DNA of 64,000 nucleotides from a virus, in the IMG/VR virus record IMGVR_UViG_3300021185_002806; one strand, given 5' to 3'. Shown here piece by piece: positions 2,619 to 64,000 of the stretch; the first letter of the stretch is position 1, and each line of letters begins with the position of its first letter. A program made the translations under genes and the position numbers. Below the pieces are notes generated by a model that was given only the letters and a program-made list of their open reading frames with translations, was not told where the DNA came from and ran no database searches.

Positions 2619-2696
2619 TGGTCGGGGTGGTAGGATTCGAACCTACGCTCTCCTGGTCCCAAACCAGGCGCTTTAGCCAGACTAAGCTACACCCCG
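2619..2696 (-). tRNA. tRNA-Pro(UGG)
   Basis: Cloverleaf; anticodon arm cctgg-tt-TGG-ga-ccagg; GTTCGAATC T-loop; encoded CCA. Confidence 0.97.
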
Positions 2697-2700
2697 ATAA

Positions 2701-3045
2701 TTATGGTAAACAAGGTTTAATAGAATTCTTATAATACAAAACCGTTTTATCATTTGTTGTTTCTACACGATGGATTACCGATTCTTTTGGTCGTCCAAAA
2801 CATTTATTCAAACTTTGACCTGGAAAACGATAACGAGTATTCATTTTTAGAAACTCCCACTGTTTTGCATTTCGAATTCTAATATTCTCATTTCTTTTGC
2901 TATCAATACAAAAAGCAACATCTGACAAGTTATCATAATCAGCCATACACTTTTTTGCAATAAAGTTTTTAGCATCCGCGCCCGTAGAGATTAGTAAACA
3001 CGTAATCAATACGGTTGCAAATTGAGCCGATAATTTAGTATCCAT
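2701..3045 (-). CDS. hypothetical exported protein
   Basis: ORF with signal-like N-terminus. Confidence 0.6.
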   Translation of the reverse strand: MDTKLSAQFATVLITCLLISTGADAKNFIAKKCMADYDNLSDVAFCIDSKRNENIRIRNAKQWEFLKMNTRYRFPGQSLNKCFGRPKESVIHRVETTNDKTVLYYKNSIKPCLP

Positions 3046-3203
3046 TATTCAGGCTCCACCCAAGGATAACAAGGAATAATACTTTGCTTACAATAACGAG
3101 CATTATCTACCAATAGGAATGGAACTCCTACAATAAAGAACAAAATAATAGCAAATGCTTTACCTAGTCCTTTTAGTGTGCAATAATTAGTTTGTTCACT
3201 CAT
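3045..3203 (-). CDS. small membrane protein
   Basis: Likely start MSEQTNY overlapping the upstream stop; one TM helix. Confidence 0.6.
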   Translation of the reverse strand: MSEQTNYCTLKGLGKAFAIILFFIVGVPFLLVDNARYCKQSIIPCYPWVEPE

Positions 3204-3624
3204 GTTCGCCACCTCGGCCTCGACCAAAGCCACCAAAATATTGTGGCTTGCGTTTTGCTGTTTCGAATGTTGCTACAGTAATAGCAATGGCACCAAGTAA
3301 TAGTGTATGTAGCATCATACTGAACACTCCTGCCCACATGCTACCTACAATAATAGCAAATACAATACACCACATCCATGCTAATACTTGCATAATCATA
3401 TGTCGTGTACTAAAATCTGGAATATTACTTAGTGGATTCTTTTCGTGATCCATTACTACATTCCAACTGTTAAAAATAAATTCTCTCATTGATATTACCT
3501 TTCTAAATATTATCTTTGTAGGATAATGAGCATCCATATCATCACGATATTCAATCGCATCATGTACATCATGGAATTCTTGGGATATTTTTTTATCCTT
3601 AAACCATGCCGTTACTTTATACAT
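3196..3624 (-). CDS. conserved marine phage membrane protein
   Basis: Two TM helices, NPLxxIPD...QVLAWMWC motif. Confidence 0.7.
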   Translation of the reverse strand: MYKVTAWFKDKKISQEFHDVHDAIEYRDDMDAHYPTKIIFRKVISMREFIFNSWNVVMDHEKNPLSNIPDFSTRHMIMQVLAWMWCIVFAIIVGSMWAGVFSMMLHTLLLGAIAITVATFETAKRKPQYFGGFGRGRGGEHE

Positions 3625-3641
3625 CTATTATCCTTTCTTCT

Positions 3642-3715
3642 TGGCATCGGTGCAGGGAGTCGAACCCCGGCTTACAGTTTTGGAGACTGTCGTGCTACCG
3701 TAACACTTCACCGAC
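3642..3715 (-). tRNA. tRNA-Trp(CCA)
   Basis: acagt-ct-CCA-aa-actgt anticodon arm, GTTCGACTC, 3' CCA. Confidence 0.96.
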
Positions 3716-3721
3716 AAATTT

Positions 3722-3798
3722 TGGTAGACCCCGCCGGACTTGAACCGACACTCGACCCGTTATGAGCGGGTGGCTTTAACCAATTAAGCTAGAGGTCT
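3722..3798 (-). tRNA. tRNA with CAU anticodon (elongator Met or lysidine-modified Ile2)
   Basis: acccg-ct-CAT-aa-cgggt; lacks the initiator GGG/CCC stem; 3' CCA. Confidence 0.93.
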
Positions 3799-3805
3799 AT
3801 AATAT

Positions 3806-3883
3806 TGGCCTCCACTAGAGGACTCGAACCTCTGACCTAGTGCTTAGAAGGCACTTGCTCTAATCCAACTGAGCTAAGTGGAG
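3806..3883 (-). tRNA. tRNA-Arg(UCU)
   Basis: agtgc-ct-TCT-aa-gcact; 3' CCA. Confidence 0.97.
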
Positions 3884-3891
3884 AAATTAAA

Positions 3892-3966
3892 TGGTACACC
3901 CTACGAGAATCGAACTCGTCTTTCCAGGTTGAAAACCTGGCGTCCTAACCGATAGACGAAGGGTGC
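3892..3966 (-). tRNA. tRNA-Glu(UUC)
   Basis: ccagg-tt-TTC-aa-cctgg; 3' CCA. Confidence 0.97.
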
Positions 3967-3974
3967 GTAATGAT

Positions 3975-4061
3975 TGGTGCCTCCTCCCGGACTCGAACCG
4001 GGACGCTTTTAAAGGCGAGAGATTTTAAGTCTCTTGTGTCTACCTATTCCACCAAGGAGGC
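3975..4061 (-). tRNA. tRNA-Leu(UAA)
   Basis: agaga-ct-TAA-aa-tctct, long variable arm, 3' CCA. Confidence 0.97.
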
Positions 4062-16768: not shown

Positions 16769-19630
16769 CTATTCAGTATCAGAAGTCAATAACAAAGTGT
16801 CCCCGCCTATAGCTGTTGTGTTAATACTTATATGCTTTTCCCATACATATGGAGTTAAATAATTAGGTCCACCTGCTTTAGGACCTGTTCCACTTAAACC
16901 TGATCCACCAAATGGCTGTGTCTCTATGACTGCTCCGATTTGGTCTCTATTTACATAAACATTTCCTACATTCAATGTCTTTGCAATATGTTCATAAAAT
17001 CTATTAACACGTGAATGAACACTCAGTGTTAATCCAAATTTACTTTTGTTTATAAAATCTAATATCTCTGGTAACTCAGACTTTTCGTAAACATACACAT
17101 GCAATACTGGGCCAAAGATTTCTTCATCAAAATATTTCTTATAATCTGATACAGTATATGCACATGGTGGGACAACTAGATTTGGTAAAGTTTTTCCATT
17201 ACGTGATTTCATTGCAATAAGTTCTTCTGTTTCTTCCAGTACCCCAATACGTGCTTGAATACGTGAATATGCCGGTCCATCGATAACCCTAGATATATCT
17301 GTATTCAAATCATCTGCATGTCCAAGTGTCATTACTTTTATCTTTTGTGCTAACATGCGAATAACTTCCGCACTATTATCTTTTTGAACAAAGAGAAATC
17401 TGGTCGCACTGCATCGTTGTCCTGCACTATCAAATGCACCATATGTAACATCTTCTACTACTTGCTCTGGTAAACATGTTGAATCTGTTATCATACAGTT
17501 TATGCCACCTGTTTCTGCGATAAACGGTATAATGGGACCATCACGTTCTGCAATTAACCTTTGAATGGCTTTAGCACTACTATGAGAGCCTGTGAACGTT
17601 ACACCCGCTATACGCTCATCTTTGACAGCCATAGACGCACTCTCAATGCTAGGGTCACACATACGCAATGCATCTACTGGAATGCCAACATAATGCATAC
17701 TTGCAATCGCAACCTTGGCAATCTCAACTGTCTGTGGTGCTGGTTTTGCCAGTACTGTGTTTCCTGTAATCAATGCGGCTACTACTGGTCCTAAAAATAT
17801 CGCATAAGGGAAGTTCCATGGGGCAATCACCATCCAAACTCCACGTGGATTAACTAATGTAGTATTATGCTCTCCTGTATACCCCAACTTAACATCTACA
17901 TTGTACATTTTTTCTGCCTGTTCAACATAGTATCTTATGAAGTCGATTGTTTCTCTTACTTCTGCTATTGCGTTAGGATATGTTTTATAAGAATATTTTA
18001 CAAGTCTATTTGCCGCACTAACCATTTCTGCTTCTATACTGTCTGCACATGCTAATAGTAATTTCTTTCTGTGTTCAAATGTTGTATTGGCCCATTGGGG
18101 CTGATAGTTTTCTAAAAGTGTTATCGTATCTTTTACTGAAATTACTTCTTCATCGTGTGGAGGATGCGTTGGCGAATCCAACATGTAATCAATCATTGCA
18201 GGATCTGATAGGTCGTAACCTTTGCTATTCTTTCTTCCAGGATATAATTGATCCCAAGTTTTTAATGATGTTTTTTTCTTTTTGACTTCTATAAATGGGT
18301 CAGTCACTTCTAAGCTATATACAAAACTAGTGTTTGCCCCATTTTCTAATAATCGTCTTATTAGGTATGCAAGTAAATCTTTGTACTCTCCTACCGGAGC
18401 ATAAATTCTAATTTTATGATTTGATGTTTTTCTTATGTAATCAAATAAACTATTTCCCATACCAAACAATTTTTGAAATTCAAAGTCTTCATTGCAATCA
18501 TTACAGTTTTTTAATGCATGAATAATTGCTGATACAGTATATGGATTATGTGTTGCAAATGCACTTTTTAAATTTTTAGATTGTACTAATTTTCTAGCAC
18601 ATGCTAGATAAGATATGTCCGTATTTTCTTTTCTAGTAAATACTGGGTATTCTAGTCCATCTTGTTGAGCGTATTTTATCTCAGTATCCCAATATGCACC
18701 TTTAACGAGCCGTATAACTACCCTTGTGTCGTTATGCTCTGCTATTGTCTGTAAGGTATTAATAGTCCAAAATGCACGTTTCTGATAAGCCTGTAGAGCA
18801 AATCCAACAGTATCATTTTTAAATTTATAAGTTGTTAATAATTCTTCTAATACCATAATACTAATATCTAGTCTACGTGCCTCTTCTGCATCGATAAACA
18901 TAGTAGTATTGTTTTCTTCGCATACTCTAGCTATAGCGGCTAATTTAGGTACTAGTGTGTGTAAAACATCTATGTGGTTCTTTAATTCGTATCTAGGGTG
19001 TATTGCGGACAGTTTTATAGATATAGACTCTTTTGATTTTGTTGCCGCCTCAAGATATCTTTCATAATATAAATTCGCATCTTCCCAATTTGTTGCGGCT
19101 TCGCCCAACATATCAAACGAATAAGTGTATCCAGGTTTTTTCTTTTTGATTGCAGTATCAATACTATTGCCCATAACAAATAATGTACCCATATGTTTTA
19201 CCATAGATTTTGTTATTTTTCTTACCGTTGGCCATCCAAGCCTAGCAACTATGCCTTCATATGCAGAAAGTTGTTGTGCCTGCGTCAAAGCGGTGCTGGC
19301 AACTTTAGAATAAAAACTATTATTTGCTAAGTTATTCCATTGAGCGTTTGATAACTTATCTTTTATAAGTTCATCCTGCGTATCACTATCTGGTGTTCGT
19401 AAAAGAGATTCACAAAGGGTCATAAGTGCCATACCTTCAGGTGCACTCATATCATATGACTTCATAATTTGAGTCAGGTAATGTTCTTCGGTAAGTTTAG
19501 ATTGAATTTGTTTGGCATCAGTCATAATAGACTGACGGTCTTTACTAGATAAACGACACGCAATTAATAGTTTTTCAACTATATCTAATTCGTTTTTTCT
19601 ATAATAGTCATTATGTGGATAACACTTCAT
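16769..19630 (-). CDS. putA: bifunctional proline dehydrogenase / P5C dehydrogenase
   Basis: SFDMLGE, SIKLS, RLVKGAYW, FATHN, YLIRRLLENGAN; ETGG, SAGQRCSA, EEIFGPVL, QPFGG. Confidence 0.97.
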   Translation of the reverse strand: MKCYPHNDYYRKNELDIVEKLLIACRLSSKDRQSIMTDAKQIQSKLTEEHYLTQIMKSYDMSAPEGMALMTLCESLLRTPDSDTQDELIKDKLSNAQWNNLANNSFYSKVASTALTQAQQLSAYEGIVARLGWPTVRKITKSMVKHMGTLFVMGNSIDTAIKKKKPGYTYSFDMLGEAATNWEDANLYYERYLEAATKSKESISIKLSAIHPRYELKNHIDVLHTLVPKLAAIARVCEENNTTMFIDAEEARRLDISIMVLEELLTTYKFKNDTVGFALQAYQKRAFWTINTLQTIAEHNDTRVVIRLVKGAYWDTEIKYAQQDGLEYPVFTRKENTDISYLACARKLVQSKNLKSAFATHNPYTVSAIIHALKNCNDCNEDFEFQKLFGMGNSLFDYIRKTSNHKIRIYAPVGEYKDLLAYLIRRLLENGANTSFVYSLEVTDPFIEVKKKKTSLKTWDQLYPGRKNSKGYDLSDPAMIDYMLDSPTHPPHDEEVISVKDTITLLENYQPQWANTTFEHRKKLLLACADSIEAEMVSAANRLVKYSYKTYPNAIAEVRETIDFIRYYVEQAEKMYNVDVKLGYTGEHNTTLVNPRGVWMVIAPWNFPYAIFLGPVVAALITGNTVLAKPAPQTVEIAKVAIASMHYVGIPVDALRMCDPSIESASMAVKDERIAGVTFTGSHSSAKAIQRLIAERDGPIIPFIAETGGINCMITDSTCLPEQVVEDVTYGAFDSAGQRCSATRFLFVQKDNSAEVIRMLAQKIKVMTLGHADDLNTDISRVIDGPAYSRIQARIGVLEETEELIAMKSRNGKTLPNLVVPPCAYTVSDYKKYFDEEIFGPVLHVYVYEKSELPEILDFINKSKFGLTLSVHSRVNRFYEHIAKTLNVGNVYVNRDQIGAVIETQPFGGSGLSGTGPKAGGPNYLTPYVWEKHISINTTAIGGDTLLLTSDTE

Positions 19631-46145: not shown

Positions 46146-46889
46146 TTAAATCTGCCATATCGTATCACGTGACCCATTAGCGATAATTTCTCTAGTCTTT
46201 TCAGATTTTAATCCTGTAATCTGAATAGATGGTCTAGGGAAATTACTTGCGTTTGCAGTGGCATGTGGTGCGTTAGCCCAATCAAAAATATGAGCCTCAC
46301 CAGCTTTCCATCTTTCGTAGATACAATTTCCATACATATAAAATTGTCCTGGTTTCCAATCATCTAAGAAAAATGTAATACGACATACTTGTTCTGGATC
46401 ATCGATACATCTGTCCCATAGTTTATCAATATGTAAATTAAACATTTGACCTGTTAACTGCACATGGGCACGATATTTTAATTCATCTTTTCCGCCTATT
46501 ACTCCAAAGTGTTCTTTCATTTTAACAAGCATTGGATAATCTTCTAACTCATCTTTCATATTTGTAAGCATAAGTTTTTTAGGATCCCCACCACCTTGTG
46601 CAATATCATATTCTTCTTGTTTTAACATTGGGGACTCGTCTTCTCTATCTCCGTAGAATTTACGAGTTTCCCAATTAATAGCTTTTATTGATTGCTCAAC
46701 TAATCTATCTCTATCTTCTTTCCACAAATCTGGATTATCAAATCGGCCTAATACCTTAAACCATTCACCTTCTTTATCAACTTTGTTATCATCAAAATGA
46801 TATTCGCTATGTGCTACTGTCCAATCCCAATTCGATTCGAATTCAGATGGATCTTTTAAGGTCTTAGACCAATTTGTTTTGTGTATCAT
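46146..46889 (-). CDS. 2OG-Fe(II)/cupin-fold hydroxylase-like protein
   Basis: LHID...PHATAN...R: HxD..H facial triad. Confidence 0.7.
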   Translation of the reverse strand: MIHKTNWSKTLKDPSEFESNWDWTVAHSEYHFDDNKVDKEGEWFKVLGRFDNPDLWKEDRDRLVEQSIKAINWETRKFYGDREDESPMLKQEEYDIAQGGGDPKKLMLTNMKDELEDYPMLVKMKEHFGVIGGKDELKYRAHVQLTGQMFNLHIDKLWDRCIDDPEQVCRITFFLDDWKPGQFYMYGNCIYERWKAGEAHIFDWANAPHATANASNFPRPSIQITGLKSEKTREIIANGSRDTIWQI

Positions 46890-48409
46890 GTATAATCGAG
46901 TCCTTTATCTTTTCTTACAAGACTATTTATGAATATACCTAAAGCTATAAGAATACATACAAGAAAAATAGGATGATTATAAATGTTGAATAAATCAAAC
47001 CATCTAAAGTCTGACATCGAACTCAATCCTGGTTTCCAGAATTTATAACCGTACAACTGTAGTGTTCCCCAAAAATATTCATCAATTTTAAATGCTACAA
47101 CGTATGCAACTAGAATTGCTGGTCTACTAATATTAAAGTGTTTACATACTACACCAATAGCACTTAAGATAACGAGTAGAACAAAGTCTTCCCATCCACC
47201 TGTGTATTGCATATTAGCCCACGTTATGACTATCAAAATAAATGTTGCATAAATCCAGAAAGGAACTTCTAATACTTTAAGAATCCATTTGTATAAAACT
47301 ATACTTAATAATGCCACACCAATTGTTCCAAAAATATAACCAAATGCTAAACTGTTTGTAAAGTTGACATCTTCTAATAGACTTGGTCTACCAATCTCCA
47401 TACCAAAGTACATACATATTGCCATAACCATGGCCGCAAATGGTGCCGCAGGTATACCAAACAAACAAGCAGGTATCATACTAGATACTTTCTGTGCATT
47501 GTTGGCTCCTTCACAGCCTAGTAACCCTACAGGATTACCTTCACCAAATGGAATTTCTTGGTCTTTTTCTTTGTGTGCGGCTTTTGTGGCACCGTATGCT
47601 AAGAAGTCGCCTACTGCTCCTCCTACACCTGGCAATAAGCCAGTTACGAATCCAATTAGTCCACCTCTACACATATCTTTCCAATGTCTTCTACAATCAC
47701 CAAAGCCTTGTTTAAGGCCTTCCCAATAACTTCCTTCCATTGGTGGTGCCGCTGATTTTAATTGTTTCTTAAATCCATCTAATAGTTCTGGAACTCCAAA
47801 TAGTCCTGATAGTAAAACTACCATACCTATTCCATTTTGTAAATATTCCCAACCAAACGTTAGTCTAGGATTACTTACAACATCTTCTCCTACCATACCT
47901 ACACATAATCCAAAGATAATAGCACAGATACTTAAGAAAACATTTTTACTTGCCACAAAGCCTACACAGGCTAGGGCCATTGTCATGAAGCCCAGAAACT
48001 CTGGACGTCCAAATAATACAATTACTTTCCCATAATAAGGAAGTAAAAAGAAAGTCAATGCCGCAAATATAACTCCATTAAATGTAGAATCAGTTATAGC
48101 AATTCCCATTGCTCTTGCCGCCTGACCTTTTTTAGCCATAGGGTAACCATCAATAACACAGGCCGCAGTCGTACTTGCACCAGGTATACCAGTAAGAATA
48201 CTTGTATAACTATCTGCACTGGCACAACTTGCCACGATTGCAGTCAGAAAGACCAACCCCAAGTAGGGGTCGGCCATAAAATATGCACCCATGCTGAATA
48301 CAGTAATTAGTGCTGTGGTAACACCTGCGATAGGAATAATACCAATTAGCATTCCATACACGGTGCCGGCCATAGCCCACATTACATATTCCATCCACAT
48401 GAATTCCAT
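46886..48409 (-). CDS. tctA: tripartite tricarboxylate transporter large permease
   Basis: GIPG.....DGYPMA..G.A, G.LPG.G, EGANNA, FGIP; many TM helices. Confidence 0.92.
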   Translation of the reverse strand: MEFMWMEYVMWAMAGTVYGMLIGIIPIAGVTTALITVFSMGAYFMADPYLGLVFLTAIVASCASADSYTSILTGIPGASTTAACVIDGYPMAKKGQAARAMGIAITDSTFNGVIFAALTFFLLPYYGKVIVLFGRPEFLGFMTMALACVGFVASKNVFLSICAIIFGLCVGMVGEDVVSNPRLTFGWEYLQNGIGMVVLLSGLFGVPELLDGFKKQLKSAAPPMEGSYWEGLKQGFGDCRRHWKDMCRGGLIGFVTGLLPGVGGAVGDFLAYGATKAAHKEKDQEIPFGEGNPVGLLGCEGANNAQKVSSMIPACLFGIPAAPFAAMVMAICMYFGMEIGRPSLLEDVNFTNSLAFGYIFGTIGVALLSIVLYKWILKVLEVPFWIYATFILIVITWANMQYTGGWEDFVLLVILSAIGVVCKHFNISRPAILVAYVVAFKIDEYFWGTLQLYGYKFWKPGLSSMSDFRWFDLFNIYNHPIFLVCILIALGIFINSLVRKDKGLDYT

Positions 48410-51111: not shown

Positions 51112-51426
51112 TTAGTCCGCCGGTTCTAATGTTACCGTCAATGGGTAACCATGCGCCCTACTTGCTCCGTGAGTCTCTTCCACCTTTTGTTCTGCTATTT
51201 CTAAGTTAAACATACCAACTATAGCTTTATCATCTACGTGAATTTTGTTTGCCAAGTCTTCTGCGGTCTGTTCATCATGCCTGTATAATTCGATTAATAA
51301 TCGCACAACGAATTCAATTGGAGTACCATCATCATTGTGCATAACAACATAGAAACGCTTTGGCGGTTCTATTACTGTTTTTGTTGTAGCATCAACAATA
51401 GTATCTGTTTCGTTGCTTACTTGCAT
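51112..51426 (-). CDS. clpS: N-degron adaptor ClpS
   Basis: VVMHNDDGTPIEFVV...IH...AEQK...YPL. Confidence 0.9.
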   Translation of the reverse strand: MQVSNETDTIVDATTKTVIEPPKRFYVVMHNDDGTPIEFVVRLLIELYRHDEQTAEDLANKIHVDDKAIVGMFNLEIAEQKVEETHGASRAHGYPLTVTLEPAD

Positions 51427-51472
51427 TATTTACCTCACTATCTTTTAAGTATTTATCTGAATTATAGCACCA

Positions 51473-52336
51473 TTACAGAAGTGAATCAAGTCTTTTTTGA
51501 TAATTACTTAACATGTCTTCTATGTGCTCCATATCCTTTGATACAGCAATCTTTTCTGCTTTTGTATGTATCTTCTTAAATTTGTTACCAGTAAAGTTTA
51601 TATCTTCATACTTTACTATTTTATTTACTTTATCACCCAATGTTTCCAGTAATTTAATGTTTATCTCACAACATCTATGGACCCACTCATATGGAGTAGG
51701 TTGATGCATTTTTCTTTTAATGTTTGGATTGAAACTTATATTGCATTCACTTATTGATGTAGAAGTTTCATCTGTACTAGCCTTATGATAAACCATCGTA
51801 AGTTGTGCAACTATTTCACTTAGTGCATTATCTAAAGGATCTCTAATCAATATGTGATGTTTGGTATCGTACTTGATATCCTCGAATGCAATTCTTGGAT
51901 TAAGTTTAGCATCATAATCATACAATTTGATTGCCTCGGATACTCTTGCCAACTTAAGCAAATTCGTTATTCCATCTAAATGATTTTTTATGTACCACAT
52001 TGGAATAGTTCGATTATAGAACGGAGTAATACCATTTTCGGTAGATTTCCAATCAGTCCAAACCCATTCATCATTATGATTATCTAAATGATGCGTAATA
52101 TTATTTGGTTCATTGTCACATTTCCACTTAAATTCATTATCAAATGGATGACTTGCTTGATATTCAGAGTTATTAGTATTGGGATTTTCCTCTTTGCATA
52201 TCGACGGCCATGCACCATGTACAGACATAATCTCTTGTGCTAAATCAGATTTAACTTGTCCAGTTGTTTTTAAGTAATTACAGTATGCAGATGATCCCGA
52301 CCTTGGTTGACACCATACTGTTATGTGCTTTGCCAT
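51473..52336 (-). CDS. sulfotransferase-like protein
   Basis: PRSGS PAPS-binding loop, LIRDPLD..LS, VKYED. Confidence 0.75.
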   Translation of the reverse strand: MAKHITVWCQPRSGSSAYCNYLKTTGQVKSDLAQEIMSVHGAWPSICKEENPNTNNSEYQASHPFDNEFKWKCDNEPNNITHHLDNHNDEWVWTDWKSTENGITPFYNRTIPMWYIKNHLDGITNLLKLARVSEAIKLYDYDAKLNPRIAFEDIKYDTKHHILIRDPLDNALSEIVAQLTMVYHKASTDETSTSISECNISFNPNIKRKMHQPTPYEWVHRCCEINIKLLETLGDKVNKIVKYEDINFTGNKFKKIHTKAEKIAVSKDMEHIEDMLSNYQKRLDSLL

Positions 52337-52404
52337 TATAATGTCCTTATCATCTGGTTAGAAGCGAGGAAACCTCGCTTCTATTTATGAAGTAATATTT
52401 TCTA

Positions 52405-52848
52405 CTATGAGATTTCAATACTACGAGGCTTCTTACCTTCTGGAACGATACGTTCTAAAGATATTTTCAGTAACCCGTCTTTCAACTCGGCACCTTTCAC
52501 TTCAACATCATCTGCAATAGTGAATGCTTTAGAGAACATTCTTTTAGAGATACCTCTGTGAAGAACACCGTCTTTATCATCATCTGATTTTTCTTTCTTA
52601 ACAGATTTAACTGTCAAAATGTTATCAGCATAGTCAACTGTAATATCATCTTTTGAGAATCCAGCTAATGCTAGTTCTACATCATAAGTGAAATCTCCAG
52701 TCTTTACGATATTGTAAGGTGGGAAGTTTACTTGGGTTTGAAATGTTGCAACATCGCCATCGAACATACGTTCAAAATGGTCAAACATGTTGTCAAAGCC
52801 TACAGTTACAGGTCGTAACTGGTTAAAAATAGATAGTCCGTTTGTCAT
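52405..52848 (-). CDS. small heat-shock protein Hsp20 (IbpA-like)
   Basis: FPPYNI, LAGF, HRGIS.R.F, DGLL.I. Confidence 0.95.
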   Translation of the reverse strand: MTNGLSIFNQLRPVTVGFDNMFDHFERMFDGDVATFQTQVNFPPYNIVKTGDFTYDVELALAGFSKDDITVDYADNILTVKSVKKEKSDDDKDGVLHRGISKRMFSKAFTIADDVEVKGAELKDGLLKISLERIVPEGKKPRSIEIS

Positions 52849-52910
52849 TGTTAACTCCTTTGTTAAGCAAGTTGATTAAAGTGTAGACCCTATCAAGCAA
52901 TCTACACAGT
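52849..52910 (-). promoter_or_regulatory. ROSE-like RNA thermometer in hsp20 5'UTR
   Basis: Two hairpins; the 3' one, AAC-UUGCUU-aaca-AAGGAG-UU, places UUGCU opposite the SD. Confidence 0.75.
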
Positions 52911-52965
52911 TATTTATGCACACTATTGTACATATATACTAATATAATGATTATTTATGGAAATG

Positions 52966-53220
52966 TCAAGTCTTTTTCTCAAGTTTTTCTGAAAAAAGTT
53001 CAATTCCCTTAGATGGTCCCGCATCCCGCGGCAATCCACCATATTTTCCAATATAATCTTCAAGTACTGCTTTATACCAAAGTTGGCTATTGTGGTGTGC
53101 TTTTTTGTTATATTTTGAGATACCAACACTTGTTCCATCCTGAGTAAGCAATGCTCTTGTGCTTTCTTGTTGCAATTCTCTTAGTGTTAATTTTTCTAAA
53201 TCTATATTCAATTTATTCAT
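52966..53220 (-). CDS. hypothetical protein
   Basis: NK.AHHNSQ.WYKAV...YG.LP. Confidence 0.7.
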   Translation of the reverse strand: MNKLNIDLEKLTLRELQQESTRALLTQDGTSVGISKYNKKAHHNSQLWYKAVLEDYIGKYGGLPRDAGPSKGIELFSEKLEKKT

Positions 53221-53280
53221 CCTTTGTTCATATTTTGATAAATAACATTATAATCAAACACATTTAGGAGGCCACCTATT

Positions 53281-53598
53281 ATGATTAAAGAAACCAAAGT
53301 ATTTTACCCACATATTGTAAAACAGTATGATGATAATGCACAACTGATTTCTGAGAATAATTATGATACATATTATTCACTAATGAGAACAATTCTTTCC
53401 GATAACGGAATTGACTTGACTGATAATACTAAGTATAAAGAAGATTTGACTACTGATAAGTTCGAAGGCAAAATTACTATTGTTTATCCAAACAATGAAA
53501 CTATGACTGCTATCGAAACTGCTATCGGTTCTCAAATGTCTTCTTTTAGCGACAGTCAACCAATCTTTGAAGAATTCTCTGATAATCATTTGTTCTAA
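53281..53598 (+). CDS. hypothetical late protein
   Basis: SD aggagg, late promoter at 53237. Confidence 0.8.
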   Translation: MIKETKVFYPHIVKQYDDNAQLISENNYDTYYSLMRTILSDNGIDLTDNTKYKEDLTTDKFEGKITIVYPNNETMTAIETAIGSQMSSFSDSQPIFEEFSDNHLF

Positions 53599-53617
53599 TA
53601 CAAAATAATCATGAAAT

Positions 53618-53648
53618 GAAAAGGTCGCTTTATGCGGCCTTTTTTTAT
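53618..53648. terminator. bidirectional terminator
   Basis: aaaaggtcgc-ttta-tgcggcc-ttttttt between convergent genes. Confidence 0.85.
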
Positions 53649-53926
53649 TCCAATTCTTGTGTTCTTTGTTTTCTATACCAACGCTTCTTTCCGGCATCCC
53701 GTGCTTTACGTTTAACCTCACTTGGTTTCACATAAGCAGTACGGTCACGAACCTCTTGTATAATGCCTGCATCTTGTACTTTCTTTTTGAACTTACGTAA
53801 TGCTCTTTCAAATTGTCCGTTTCTTACTTCTACTGTTAGACCCGACTTATTAGTTTGTGAAAAGTCGTTTCTATCGTTTGATTTATATTGTCTATTCTTA
53901 TTATAACTATTATTGTAACTAGTCAT
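53645..53926 (-). CDS. rpsU: 30S ribosomal protein bS21
   Basis: VEVRNGQFERALRKFKKK...YVKPSE.KRK. Confidence 0.92.
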   Translation of the reverse strand: MTSYNNSYNKNRQYKSNDRNDFSQTNKSGLTVEVRNGQFERALRKFKKKVQDAGIIQEVRDRTAYVKPSEVKRKARDAGKKRWYRKQRTQELE

Positions 53927-54464
53927 TTTTTATTATTACACCTATTATCCTATTCCCGTTTGTTTTTAGAGGGAGGTCGTATTTGAAACTACTCAAATAC
54001 TCAGAGATTTGGGAATTAAAGAACTCTAACACATCACTTGCCTTAGAATTTTCCCTGCCCCTCATTTGTACTGTCACTTTTACTTTATTGCCTTTATCAA
54101 TAAACTTTTGAACTTGGTTAAGTTTCATCTTTAGGTCGTTCTCACCTATAGCTGGTCTAAACTTAACTTCTTTAACTTCAACTGAATTTTGTCTGGCTAG
54201 TTTTGCCTTCTCTTTTTCACGTTTTTTGATTTCGTAATTGTACTTATTTATACTAATGATTTTTGCAACTGGCGGCTTTGCATCTGGAACAATTAGAATC
54301 AAATCTAATCCTTCTGAATCCGCTTTTTGCTGTGCTTCTTGTTTTGATAAGACACCAAGTTGTTCACCGGTGTCTGTGACTACACGTAATTCATCTGCAC
54401 GAATACGTTGATTGGCTACAACGAATGGCTTTCGCCCTCGTTCTTCCTTAAAGTTTTTCTTCAT
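53919..54464 (-). CDS. infC: translation initiation factor IF-3
   Basis: N..IRA.ELRV, LDLILI.P.AKPPVAKI, KEVKFRP.I, RGRE. Confidence 0.95.
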   Translation of the reverse strand: MKKNFKEERGRKPFVVANQRIRADELRVVTDTGEQLGVLSKQEAQQKADSEGLDLILIVPDAKPPVAKIISINKYNYEIKKREKEKAKLARQNSVEVKEVKFRPAIGENDLKMKLNQVQKFIDKGNKVKVTVQMRGRENSKASDVLEFFNSQISEYLSSFKYDLPLKTNGNRIIGVIIKND

Positions 54465-55722
54465 TCGTTCCTGTTGATTCCCCTATTTCTTCTGTAAATA
54501 CCAAAATCGGTTCTTTGTTATGTTTAATAAAATCACCTGTAATTTCTACTGATACAAGCCCTTGTTTAGCAAGTTTAGGCAACTTGAATTGTAATTTCAA
54601 TAGTGATTTTTCTAACACACTCCTAAGACCTCTTGCTCCTGTCTTATTTGATTTTGCTATTTCAGAAATCTCATTTATTGCATCTTTAGTTAAATTTAAC
54701 TCAACTCCATCTAATTTAAAAATCTTCTTAAATTGTGCCATTAGATTGTTTTTAGGCTCAGTCAATATACGACTTAGTTCATCTTTAGTTAAGTCGTTGA
54801 TACCTACTAGTATTGGAAAACGTCCCATGAACTCTGGTATAATACCGTATCGGATTACGTCTTCTGGTAATACTTCTTCTGATACTCTCATATCATCTGC
54901 CGAGTCTTGTGCCATAACTCTTGCGCCGAAGCCAATTGAACCATTGGCATTTAATCTTCGCTTGATTACTTTATCAAGACCAACAAAGGCGCCGCCGACA
55001 ATAAACAGGATTTTGCTTGTATCAACTTCAAGCATTTCTGCGCCAGGATGTTTTCTTCCACCACCCGGTGGAACACGTACAACCGTACCTTCAACAATTT
55101 TTAATAGGGCTTGTTGAACACCTTCACCACTAACATCTTTAGTGATAGAGATACTTTCACCCTTCTTTGCTTTTTTATCGATTTCATCAATATAGATAAT
55201 ACCTTGTTCTGCTTTTTTAATATCAAAGTCTGATGCCATAAGTAAACGTTGTATTACATTTTCAACATCTTCACCTACATACCCACTTTCTGTTAGGGTA
55301 GTTGCATCTACTTGTGCGAAAGGAACATCTAAAAATTTTGCGATAGTCTTACCTAAGAGAGTTTTACCTGTACCACTTGGTCCAAGCATCATTACGTTAG
55401 ATTTCTCTAACTCTACTTCATCATCATCTTCTGGTAAATTAATTCTTTTATAGTGGTTGTAAACAGCAACACTCAAAACTTCTTTAGCTTCATCCTGACC
55501 AATTACATGAGCATTTAAAAACTCATTGATATCCTCAGGAGTTGGAATATCGCTGTTTACTTCTGTTGTCTTGTTATCTACGCTCTTACGTTCATGGACG
55601 ATAGAATGACAAAGGTCAATACACTCGTTACAGATATACGTTGCCGGTCCTGCAATTAAGGTGTTGATTTCATTCTTATGCTTTCCACAAAATGAACAAT
55701 GATAATCTTTTTTATCGGACAA
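54448..55722 (-). CDS. clpX: ATP-dependent Clp protease ATPase subunit ClpX
   Basis: CSFC..CNEC zinc domain, GPSGTGKT, GYVG, DEIDK, GRKHP, IGF loop, TGARGLR. Confidence 0.97.
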   Translation of the reverse strand: MSDKKDYHCSFCGKHKNEINTLIAGPATYICNECIDLCHSIVHERKSVDNKTTEVNSDIPTPEDINEFLNAHVIGQDEAKEVLSVAVYNHYKRINLPEDDDEVELEKSNVMMLGPSGTGKTLLGKTIAKFLDVPFAQVDATTLTESGYVGEDVENVIQRLLMASDFDIKKAEQGIIYIDEIDKKAKKGESISITKDVSGEGVQQALLKIVEGTVVRVPPGGGRKHPGAEMLEVDTSKILFIVGGAFVGLDKVIKRRLNANGSIGFGARVMAQDSADDMRVSEEVLPEDVIRYGIIPEFMGRFPILVGINDLTKDELSRILTEPKNNLMAQFKKIFKLDGVELNLTKDAINEISEIAKSNKTGARGLRSVLEKSLLKLQFKLPKLAKQGLVSVEITGDFIKHNKEPILVFTEEIGESTGTNEEKL

Positions 55723-60268: not shown

Positions 60269-60485
60269 ATAAGCAAAGTAGGAGGGACTTGGTTACACCC
60301 CCAACCCCTCGACACAGATACCATTCTGAATCCAGGGAACCTAGTTCCGTTCGGTAGAACGATGTGACTCTTAGCCTCTCAGCTTTGAACCTGGGTACCA
60401 CCCCTAACTAGTCAAGTTCGACCGTCTGGTAACAGCCTCTTCCTTGCACTACAATCATTGAGTCGCTAAACTCTCTGATGCTTAT
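60269..60485 (-). ncRNA. unidentified highly structured ncRNA (217 nt)
   Basis: GC-rich island; terminal stem AUAAGCA/UGCUUAU; many helices; dedicated promoter at 60492-60520. Confidence 0.8.
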
Positions 60486-61790: not shown

Positions 61791-62734
61791 AATACTAACT
61801 CCCAAAATCCATTATTATTTCTGAGTACTGTGCTACCGTTTACTTTTACTTCATTGCCTACCTTTTCATAACAACGAGGTGGCATATAAGTAGTAGGTTT
61901 AGCTAAGTTTACTGTTATAGCGGCTCCCTGTACTTCTCTATATTTAGCCCTTGTATTTTTAGGAGATAATGTTCTAGTGACTGAGCGTGGACTAAAATCA
62001 TCATTACCTGTATAGCCCAGTGATAATTTTCTCCCTGTAACATCAAATTTATGTAAATGCATTTCATCAACCATTGGATAAAATGATTTTATATAACCAT
62101 TTGAATAATCTGTTATGATTGCGTTTACTTTGCCTTCATATACATTTGCTAATTGCATTCTTGTGTTACCAGGATGTAATTGCCATCTGCCACGTACTGT
62201 TAAATGACTAAAACATTCTTGTTGCATTTGTTCTATATGGGCTTTCCATCTTGTTTTTGCAATGCCGGTATTAAATGTAGGTTCAAATTGAGTTATGGGT
62301 CTTGTAGGTTTCTGTTCCGCCACTATACCGGGCATATACCAATCAGGAAACCAAACTAAATTTAAAGGGTCATATATTTTTTGGCCATTTCTTAATTCTT
62401 CTAATATGTGATAAAACGCATTTGGTTTGGTTAACAAATCATCACGTGAATGTTCAGTGTTAAGCCAATCTTCATTGCTCCAAACTTTATTACTATTAGA
62501 AAATAATTCATCTATTACATGTACAATACTGCCATGTATATTACGGCGAATGCCATCATCATCAAATCCAAAAAGATTTATCCATATATCTTTTATTGTG
62601 CCTCGATATATCCAGGTCTTTTGCCCTGACTCTGCATCTGCACGTTTAGTTACAGTTAGATAATGTTCGTATGAAGTTAGGTGTCTGTGGGACCAATTAG
62701 GTGCTTCTTTCCAAAGACTTTCGTTATCAGTCAT
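61787..62734 (-). CDS. hypothetical protein
   Basis: Long coupled ORF with HPG.TR motif. Confidence 0.7.
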
Positions 62735-63065
62735 AATCGTCTAACAACTTTGTCTTATCTCCTGTATATCCCATTGCAGGGTTTAGTGAGTCTGCATCTG
62801 GAAGAGGGTCTTCTCTCTCTGTAATGACAGGCCATTGCTGTGACCATTTCTCATTTATATCATACAACCGTTGCGTGAACAATGGCGATGTATCTGGAAT
62901 GATTGCATCTGCTGGACACTCTGGTTCGCACACACCACAGTCAATGCATTCGTCTGGGTTAATTACTAACATATCTTCGCCAACGTAAAAACAATCTACT
63001 GGGCAAACTTCAACACAATCAGTATATTTACATTTAATACAATTCTCGTTTACTACGTATGCCAT
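62727..63065 (-). CDS. fdxA: 7Fe ferredoxin
   Basis: [18 protein letters not shown]...[12 protein letters not shown]. Confidence 0.95.
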
Positions 63066-63094
63066 ATATTTTCTTTATTAACCCCAAATTAAAA

Positions 63095-63355
63095 TATGAC
63101 TTTTCTGTTGCCAGGTAAGCCATCAACCCCTACGTGCTTAAAACTAAGCCGCTAATGCCATTTCTGGCTCATAATTTGCGTTTGCAATTATAGTTTTTGA
63201 CCAATAACGCAGTCATCCGGTAAACTCCACTTCACTTTCGCACCTGTCGATCCTAGTTCAGCCCCATCATAAAAACATTCAGTAAATGTGCTTATGGTGG
63301 AGCTGTGGGGTACTGCCCCCCAGTCCAGAATACGTCTACGTTGCTTCAACGTCTA
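63095..63355 (-). ncRNA. ssrA: circularly permuted (two-piece) tmRNA, alphaproteobacterial type; tag ANANYEPEMALAA
   Basis: Acceptor piece ...GGGGCAGUACCCCACAGCUCCACCA ends at 63295; 29-nt intervening segment; coding piece starts GGGGCUGAA...GAUCGAC at 63265; G3-U70 pair; tag ORF 63185-63144. Confidence 0.95.
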
Positions 63356-63400
63356 CAATATTATTTATACACGATAAACGTATATAAGTCAATACATTAA

Positions 63401-63757
63401 TTAAAATGTAATTGATGTTCCGATTACTGATTCAGTTCTTTCGAATGAATCGTTCAAATCATTTTTAAGATAAATTGTTACATTATCTTGTAGCGGGAAT
63501 GAAAAGTTTAACATTTGCTTGTTCAAATCTAAAAAATCTTTTCCATCAGCATCGATGTCCCATTTTGCACCGTAAGATGCAGTGATACCAAATAGTGGTT
63601 TTGCTACTGAAAACTCACCGTTTTGTGTATTTGCCTCAATCGCTCTTTCAAGTGATAGAGAAAACGTCATATCGTCTGATACAGACGTTCCTTCAGCCAT
63701 CGCTGATGTTGTAAATAAGGCCGCAACTAGCAGACCTGTTAGTGTTACTTTTTTCAT
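63401..63757 (-). CDS. exported beta-strand-rich protein ending in Phe (outer-membrane protein-like)
   Basis: Signal peptide, C-terminal SITF, promoter TTGACA-N17-TATAAT at 63809-37. Confidence 0.65.
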   Translation of the reverse strand: MKKVTLTGLLVAALFTTSAMAEGTSVSDDMTFSLSLERAIEANTQNGEFSVAKPLFGITASYGAKWDIDADGKDFLDLNKQMLNFSFPLQDNVTIYLKNDLNDSFERTESVIGTSITF

Positions 63758-64000
63758 AAGTAGTCCTCCTTAAAAAAAATGCTACCCAACTCGGGTAACA
63801 TAAGTTGTATTATAGCACAAGTAAATTCCAGTGTCAACTACCCAAAGAAGAAAAAATGAAAATAACCATCATTTTTCAACCAAGTAATTAAGGCACTCAT
63901 TATCCCGCAAGCCATAATGTACAAGACAGTTTTCACTGTCCAATGTTGTCTTCCTGACCATCTTTTAACTTTGTTATCAGACCTACTTGCTTTATCCATA

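Follow-up and report, generated by a model that had tools for sequence, protein, structure and literature searches.

A probably functional two-piece, alpha-type tmRNA gene in an uncultured marine phage of putative T4-like jumbo type

Previous studies have reported that Caulobacter crescentus has a two-piece tmRNA (Keiler, Shapiro and Williams 2000, as cited in PMC9004378). One-piece phage tmRNAs were listed by Hudson, Lau and Williams in 2014 (PMC4131195), and the 2025 tmRNA database includes 79 unique sequences from phages (PMC11915505). A two-piece ssrA was described in the Methylophilales phage Melnitz by Buchholz et al. in 2022 (PMC9004378). That study reported 402 phage genomes with a tmRNA and 53 unique two-piece forms, of which 50 were marine or aquatic; permuted tmRNAs occurred in 17 of 47 related contigs, and the same functions were proposed as here. 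The Melnitz tmRNA is of the alpha type, and its host is a gammaproteobacterium (PMC9004378). For the Sinorhizobium jumbo phage AP-J-162, which carries a tmRNA together with Clp genes, the two were not functionally linked by the authors (PMC11242549). The phage two-piece tmRNA is therefore already published as a kind, and the gene analyzed here is a further example of it. In the present study, we analyzed a stretch of 64,000 nt from a viral IMG/VR record (IMGVR_UViG_3300021185_002806), which is referred to below as the window. Judging from its sequence and its relatives, we put the probability at roughly 0.78 that the window carries a working two-piece, alpha-type tmRNA gene of an uncultured marine T4-like jumbo phage.

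ARAGORN, Rfam and direct reading all revealed a complete circularly permuted tmRNA gene on the minus strand at 63356-63096, so that the coordinates given in a preliminary description of this DNA (63095-63355) were right within two bases. ARAGORN, one of the checks proposed there, returned a single permuted tmRNA (minus strand, 63053-63388) with the tag peptide ANANYEPEMALAA. The covariance models, which were also proposed there as a check, gave 127.6 bits for alpha_tmRNA (RF01849; E 1.9e-34, model 1-355 of 355, minus strand 63409-63093) and 121.4 bits for tmRNA_permuted (RF04321; model 1-213 of 213, minus strand 63356-63144), neither match being truncated. Both scores are more than twice the Rfam cut-offs of 50 and 47 bits, respectively; the matches lie far beyond chance, which was excluded as their origin by a wide margin. 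The parts of the gene and the gene that follows it are as follows:

63356-63295, minus strand: acceptor piece (62 nt), including the 5' strands of the inter-piece helices (Rfam alignments; covariation in the T-arm, acceptor stem and inter-piece helices)
63322-63306, minus strand: T-arm with stem UGGGG/CCCCA and loop GGCAGUA (direct reading, Rfam)
63305-63299, minus strand: 3' acceptor strand CAGCUCC (direct reading)
63298 and 63297-63295, minus strand: discriminator A and encoded CCA, respectively (direct reading)
63294-63266, minus strand: intervening spacer of exactly 29 nt with a 5-bp ACAUU/AAUGU hairpin (counted from the sequence)
63265-63096, minus strand: coding piece of about 170 nt (Rfam alignments, covariation), including the 3' strands of the inter-piece helices (Rfam alignments)
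63265-63259, minus strand: 5' acceptor strand GGGGCUG, which pairs with CAGCUCC and gives G3:U70
63185-63144, minus strand: tag frame with resume codon GCA (63185-63183), peptide ANANYEPEMALAA and stop TAG (63146-63144) (ARAGORN and reading)
63123-63096, minus strand: 3'-terminal hairpin with the conserved loop ACCUGGCAACAGAA (alignment, covariation)
62727-63065, minus strand: ferredoxin gene with 4Fe-4S domains and DUF3470 (Pfam), starting 30 nt past the tmRNA 3' hairpin

ARAGORN and direct reading both indicated that the acceptor piece, with its CCA end, precedes the coding piece, which starts with GGGG. The acceptor stem consists of 7 bp with the G3:U70 alanine identity pair and a discriminator A. 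The T-loop fits the alpha-type GGCNGUA of the Rfam alignment. The acceptor half preceding the 5' half, the 29-nt hairpin spacer, the G3-U70 pair and a tag frame running to a stop had all been claimed in the preliminary description, and each was found as described; the peptide read from the frame is the one that ARAGORN returned. The region of the putative pseudoknot PK1 upstream of the resume codon aligned to both Rfam models, inspection by eye giving no clear covarying form of it, and an AGG/CCU pseudoknot-type contact was predicted in the coding piece. The 53-codon open reading frame at 63188-63349 was rejected as an artefact, namely read-through of the RNA gene.

We then scanned IMG/VR for the permuted signature, defined as a CCA end, 15-45 nt, and a GGGG..GAA.TAGGATCGAC start, and found it in at least 120 contigs; the closest relatives among the matches listed shared 79-86% identity over about 270 nt. 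An alignment was made of the window and 14 viral relatives. On these 15 sequences, RNAalifold predicted 38 pairs, 17 of which were kept via changes on both sides. With the 3'-terminal hairpin added to the predicted fold, the structure counted comprised 43 pairs; 94.2% of its cells were paired, compared with 34-41% when the partners were slid by 1-3 columns. Changes on both sides were observed in 23 of the 43 pairs, and none of 500 shuffles came up to any observed measure. The G3:U70 pair was unvarying in all 15 sequences, and acceptor pairs 5 and 6 covaried. The pairs altered on both sides included three of five in the T-arm stem, nine of 15 in the inter-piece helices (four segments, 89-100% paired) and all six in the 3'-terminal hairpin. 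The window precursor alone gave a single-sequence fold z of -3.9.

In the spacer hairpin, ACA/UGU was invariant among the viral relatives, with 96% of cells paired. The same hairpin was also observed in some cellular lineages (Sneathiella, Hellea and Caulobacterales), and this sharing between virus and cell hints at a processing signal. One relative, L123, carries a 21-nt insertion in the hairpin loop. Among the 46 distinct tag peptides from 83 viral loci, the end is LAA in 40 and AA in 45; their middle varies freely, and the resume-codon context was invariant in the aligned viral relatives. These patterns argue that selection keeps the RNA fold and the tag in phages. Since the fold is compensatory and the tag end is kept, the comparison points to a working tmRNA rather than to a decaying pick-up or a mere SmpB sponge.

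The window holds 98 open reading frames, nearly all on one strand and tightly packed. Matches to phage families were found for an ATP-dependent DNA ligase, an endolysin, an endonuclease, a thioredoxin and Hsp20. A cluster of six tRNA genes (Pro-TGG, Trp-CCA, Met-CAT, Arg-TCT, Glu-TTC and Leu-TAA) lies at 2619-4061 on the minus strand, and parts of it are 69-84% identical to the tRNA regions that adjoin the tmRNA in three IMG/VR contigs (L121-L123). Many window reading frames recur on tmRNA-bearing IMG/VR contigs. The T4-type major capsid gene (Gp23) was present in three of five long tmRNA-bearing IMG/VR records, one of which is a complete 328-kb genome with terminal repeats. When 185,579 species genomes were scanned, the best 'cellular' tmRNA match was the contig G006:C57 (L137, PBPT01000016.1; 335,231 bp, 35.8% GC), which carries the tmRNA at 42 kb, Gp23 at 238 kb and 10 tRNAs. 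This contig is filed under a 'Candidatus Neomarinimicrobiota' MAG, and it is a mis-binned T4-like jumbo phage. A search seeded with T4 gene 55 revealed a gp55-like late sigma factor on it (phrog_12791, E 2.8e-78), and 36 of the 98 window reading frames have homologues there. Because of the shared reading frames together with Gp23 and the late sigma factor of G006:C57, the window is most probably part of a related T4-like jumbo phage, an assignment that is indirectly but well tested. The structural genes of this phage lie outside the window. Gp23-bearing contigs are also held by MAGs labelled Marinovum and Verrucomicrobiales (G007 and G008).

No close cultured relative of the window was found: when the last 24 kb of its DNA was compared with isolated phages at near identity, a single 228-nt match was obtained. 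It falls at a manA RNA (RF01745; window 60272-60470, minus strand), which scored 55.5 bits and barely exceeded the cut-off of 55.2, and the phage is the Pelagibacter phage Mosig. On the minus strand, the window also encodes a full-length PutA of 953 aa (16769-19630), with proline dehydrogenase, aldehyde dehydrogenase and DNA-binding domains, and a TctA tricarboxylate-transporter subunit (46886-48409); a phage would not usually carry either of these metabolic genes. Only a weak U-rich tract was observed between the tmRNA 3' hairpin and the ferredoxin gene, and the latter may be co-transcribed with the tmRNA precursor. As the 335-kb relative shows no synteny between the ferredoxin gene and the tmRNA, we regard this gene as a neighbour rather than a partner.

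The region upstream of the tmRNA gene contains two promoter words separated by 17 nt:

63392-63387, minus strand: -35-type hexamer TTGACT (direct reading)
63369-63362, minus strand: TATAAATA box, a T4-type late promoter word whose first six bases form an imperfect -10 (direct reading)

The words TTGACT-N17-TATAAA and the overlapping late word had been placed here by the preliminary description, and all of them were found at 63392-63362. In the alignment of 15 sequences, TTGAC[AT] was present at the same position in 12 and ATAAATA in 13. The window contains five copies only of TATAAATA, and the sole TTGACW-N16-18-TATAAATA in it is that of the tmRNA. The 335-kb relative has 26 copies of TATAAATA where about 85 would be expected, which makes the word depleted there. 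Intergenic DNA accounts for 9% of this genome and contains half of the copies, and the single occurrence of the hybrid is again at the tmRNA. The background frequency of TATAAATA is 1.2% per 100 nt; upstream of the tmRNA, we observed it in 50 of 106 distinct viral genes and in none of the 29 cellular genes. The complete hybrid TTGACW-N17-TATAAATA was detected in 39 of the 106 viral genes and in 0 of the 29 cellular genes, as well as in the isolate Melnitz. This phage-specific hybrid promoter appears to be new.

The -10 element of sigma-70 promoters prefers a final T, and TATAAATA is the word read by the late sigma factor in T4. The tmRNA promoter was not listed in a consensus sigma-70 promoter scan of the window, because TATAAA is without that final T; for the same reason, early transcription by the host sigma-70 enzyme may be weak. 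The phage family encodes its own gp55-like late sigma factor, as seen in the 335-kb relative. As a sigma-70-type -35 element is joined to a T4 late word, the promoter is probably active both early and late. The early-plus-late promoter of the preliminary description thus gained support in that the hybrid is kept in relatives, unique to the tmRNA gene in the window and in the 335-kb relative, and absent from cellular tmRNA genes, its timing being predicted from sequence. Elsewhere in the window, at 63779-63837 on the minus strand, we observed a perfect 12-of-12 sigma-70 promoter (TTGACA, 17 nt, TATAAT, extended TG), with a terminator-like hairpin and T-run within 8 nt of it. This odd promoter-then-terminator order lies just upstream of the gene of a 118-aa signal-peptide protein (63401-63757).

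To look for the protein partner of tmRNA, we used a SmpB profile built from 25 alphaproteobacterial SmpB proteins, for which the control gave E 9e-76. Six-frame searches yielded no SmpB, with best E values of 0.14 in the window and 2.7 in the 335-kb relative, and Pfam SmpB was absent from all 10 long tmRNA-bearing viral records, two of them at least 90% complete. Because no phage SmpB was found in the window, which is a part of its genome, or in 11 long related records, the host SmpB would be needed. Besides SmpB, the phage tmRNA must, as far as its sequence tells, rely on the alanyl-tRNA synthetase, EF-Tu and processing enzymes of the host.

Drawing on the host SmpB pool would also suit a decoy, that is, a phage RNA that mainly competes for SmpB and so blocks host trans-translation or swaps the host tag. 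The tRNA-like-domain-only tmRNA of mycobacteriophage DS6A inhibits the endogenous tmRNA (PMC4131195, PMC11915505), and the tags differ among phage lineages, as such a role would allow. We nevertheless consider a decoy unlikely. The mRNA-like part of the gene is under selection, as indicated by the invariant resume context, the in-frame stop, the prevalence of LAA ends (40 of 46) and the covarying 3' hairpin; a pure SmpB sponge has no need of a kept mRNA-like part and was rejected. In addition, the window tag is of the ordinary alpha type.

The origin of the gene was addressed by a tree of 137 distinct tmRNAs, in which the cellular sample was limited. The window was placed in an all-viral clade (SH-aLRT 98-99); the 59 nearest rows were all viral or phage-like contigs, and the first cellular row was the 60th. 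When Melnitz and two roseophages were added, the clade was unchanged and none of the three joined it. Among 401 sampled Alphaproteobacteria genomes, the best cellular match was 79% over 85 nt, covering the tRNA-like core only. By this tree, the window tmRNA is a member of an old, all-viral clade and not a recent capture. The depth and purity of this viral clade appear to be new.

These results also bear on whether the window could be an alphaproteobacterial fragment or a mis-assembly, with the tmRNA being the ssrA of a cell. The window does contain cell-like genes (PutA, TctA, ClpX and ferredoxin), and some related contigs are filed under bacterial MAGs. However, those MAG contigs bear Gp23, one of them with tmRNA and Gp23 on the same contig, and more than a third of the window reading frames (36/98) are common to the phage contig G006:C57. 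No tmRNA match among the 401 Alphaproteobacteria extended beyond 85 nt, the nearest 59 tmRNAs are all viral, SmpB is absent, and a phage-only late-promoter word stands upstream of the gene. We therefore rejected a cellular ssrA as highly improbable. Phages are well known to integrate into ssrA, and prophages to contain fragments of it (PMC9004378, PMC11915505); the gene might accordingly be a piece of host ssrA left by the insertion of a temperate phage. Against this, both pieces are complete, the full-length models match without truncation, the gene has its own conserved promoter, and the fold is under selection within the viral clade. No integrase was found among the 39 window reading frames scanned, which included all flanking genes down to 57954. 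An integration remnant was likewise rejected, with hardly any probability left to it. Collectively, the core of the preliminary description was supported, namely that the permuted, alpha-type tmRNA is carried by a phage and has a degradation tag and a promoter of its own.

The comparison of relatives further revealed that the 42-mer tag frame of the window is identical in L121-L123, which belong to another phage population. About 75 nt around the tag (window 63120-63190, minus strand), beginning shortly before the resume codon and ending shortly after the stop, were identical, and the rest of their tmRNA was about 72% identical. The acceptor half of the window is closest to two other relatives (L021 and L010). 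This pattern suggests a mosaic tmRNA formed by recombination inside the gene between phages, and such a mosaic tag region appears to be new.

Regarding the host, the gene type points to alphaproteobacterial ancestry and gives a hint, no stronger, of the host class. The preliminary description had called the tmRNA the strongest pointer to the host class, which proved too strong: the clade is an old viral one, and the inference is weak because Melnitz, which has an alpha-type tmRNA, infects a gammaproteobacterium (PMC9004378). Host assignment via the tmRNAs of cultured phages was tried and rejected, as Melnitz and the roseophages fall outside the clade of the window. The phage ClpX was also rejected as a marker; its best phage matches, at about 53% identity, are Agrobacterium and Sinorhizobium jumbo phages, and it is too conserved to be informative on lineage or host. 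Two warnings follow from the survey, namely that an alpha-type tmRNA is a weak host marker and that several 'bacterial' MAG contigs with such tmRNAs are really phage.

The surroundings of the gene were compatible with a more specific role in counter-defence, in which the tmRNA, jointly with the phage tRNAs, would rescue ribosomes stalled by RNA-cleaving abortive-infection systems. The gene lies in an accessory-gene region near a tRNA cluster, 24 sigma-70-type promoter matches were found on the gene strand of the window, and the tmRNAs of relatives are likewise near tRNA genes. However, no defence or anti-defence gene was identified adjoining the tmRNA, and the same facts are explained by general ribosome rescue. 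We consider this specialised role quite improbable and retain general rescue as the preferred function.

Three genes within the window are related to protein turnover and form a proteostasis cluster at 51112-55722 on the minus strand:

51112-51426, minus strand: ClpS-like adaptor gene (phrog_27368 'ATP-dependent protease', E 1.2e-20)
52405-52848, minus strand: Hsp20 small heat-shock protein gene (phrog_432, E 2.9e-41)
54448-55722, minus strand: phage ClpX, 7 kb from the tmRNA (Pfam zf-C4_ClpX and AAA_2)

Sequence inspection indicated that the zinc finger, Walker A and B, GYVG, RKH and IGF motifs of the phage ClpX are all intact. The IGF loop of ClpX docks ClpP, and the phage ClpX is possibly a reader of the LAA-ended tag. 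In the 335-kb relative, a ClpS homologue lies about 7 kb from the tmRNA with an Hsp20 homologue adjoining it, and ClpX and ClpP were both absent. ClpP was not found within the window. ClpX homologues were present in two of 10 long tmRNA-bearing viral records; two jumbo relatives carry ClpX together with ClpP, and five further records are without ClpX. As the Clp genes are patchy among relatives, we regard them as variable cargo and not as an obligate partner of the tmRNA. Given a window without ClpP and ClpX in only two of the 10 records, a link between the tmRNA and the phage ClpX would be optional.

Based on these results, we propose the following course of events. The gene would be transcribed from its own hybrid promoter as a single precursor. 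The 29-nt spacer would be removed by tRNA-processing enzymes of the host, by analogy with the excision in Caulobacter; the 5' end with its GGGG would be made by RNase P, and the gene itself supplies the CCA. The predicted product consists of two pieces held together by base pairing, an acceptor piece of 62 nt and a coding piece of about 170 nt; this RNA would be charged by the host alanyl-tRNA synthetase via G3:U70. Host SmpB and EF-Tu would then bring the tmRNA to ribosomes stalled on broken messages, where translation would restart at GCA and append ANANYEPEMALAA. The ribosome would be freed, and the LAA-ended product would pass to ClpXP, possibly with the phage ClpX. The likely benefit would be free ribosomes and amino-acid recycling while host messages are destroyed during infection, and the tmRNA may act throughout infection.

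In a wider reading that we hold only tentatively, and that is on balance doubtful, the tmRNAs of marine T4-like phages would form an old, vertical viral lineage with a hybrid promoter and also be one arm of a turnover programme of jumbo phages. If this is true, the programme would comprise the phage tmRNA tag, the phage ClpX (with ClpP in some relatives), ClpS and Hsp20; it would clear stalled ribosomes and recycle incomplete proteins over the whole course of infection, with only SmpB borrowed from the host. On the main reading, a giant ocean phage would invest in free host ribosomes and in marking unfinished proteins for destruction, which fits with large phages seizing translation and proteostasis. 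The value of the locus lies in its details: it is a clean example with a minimal spacer, it belongs to a viral lineage that appears long-standing and selected, and its phage-only hybrid promoter predicts expression in both the early and the late phases.

Finally, we compared the locus with the known systems. The Sinorhizobium jumbo phage AP-J-162, whose host is alphaproteobacterial, resembles the window in having a tmRNA, clpX and other Clp genes, and Hsp20 (PMC11242549); in contrast, it is a soil phage of 471 kb and 47% GC, and its tmRNA was not detectably similar by blastn. Mycobacteriophages of the Bxz1 type and Bacillus phage G also carry a tmRNA without a phage SmpB (PMC4131195), whereas their gene is of the standard non-permuted form and their hosts and environments are unrelated. 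The roseophages DSS3_MAL1 and Phaeobacter phage MD18 (MN602268, MT270409) are marine and have a permuted tmRNA like the window. They are phages of Alphaproteobacteria of roughly 149 kb in which the tmRNA adjoins tRNA genes, and their tag ANTNAAPMEMAIAA is similar to the ...PEMALAA tags found in the clade of the window; they differ in their distant tree branch, their 98-nt spacer and an upstream region without the TATAAATA hybrid. The Caulobacter-type tmRNA (RF01849) has in common with the window the gene order, the GGCNGUA T-loop, G3:U70, the encoded CCA, a tag of the AN.N...LAA type and a 3' hairpin with the ACCUGGCAACAGAA loop. Compared with the tmRNA of Alphaproteobacteria, the window gene is phage-borne, is without a partner smpB and has a late-promoter word that is absent from the 29 cellular genes. 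The ssrA of Melnitz differs from the window gene in several respects: the spacer is 142 nt rather than 29 nt; a glutamine riboswitch is located in the 3' part of the Melnitz gene, whereas Rfam revealed none in the window; the tag is ANDNYVPVDYALAA rather than ANANYEPEMALAA; and the Melnitz genome is about 141 kb, compared with 328-335 kb for the nearest long relatives of the window phage. The tmRNAs of Melnitz and the pelagimyophages belong to other clades of the tree than that of the window, and the identity between Melnitz and the window tmRNA was 80% over 107 nt of DNA. Like the window gene, the ssrA genes of Melnitz and the pelagimyophages, for which no SmpB is reported, are complete, alpha-type, two-piece genes of marine T4-like myophages with their own promoter, and Melnitz has the same TTGACW-N16-18-TATAAATA hybrid upstream.
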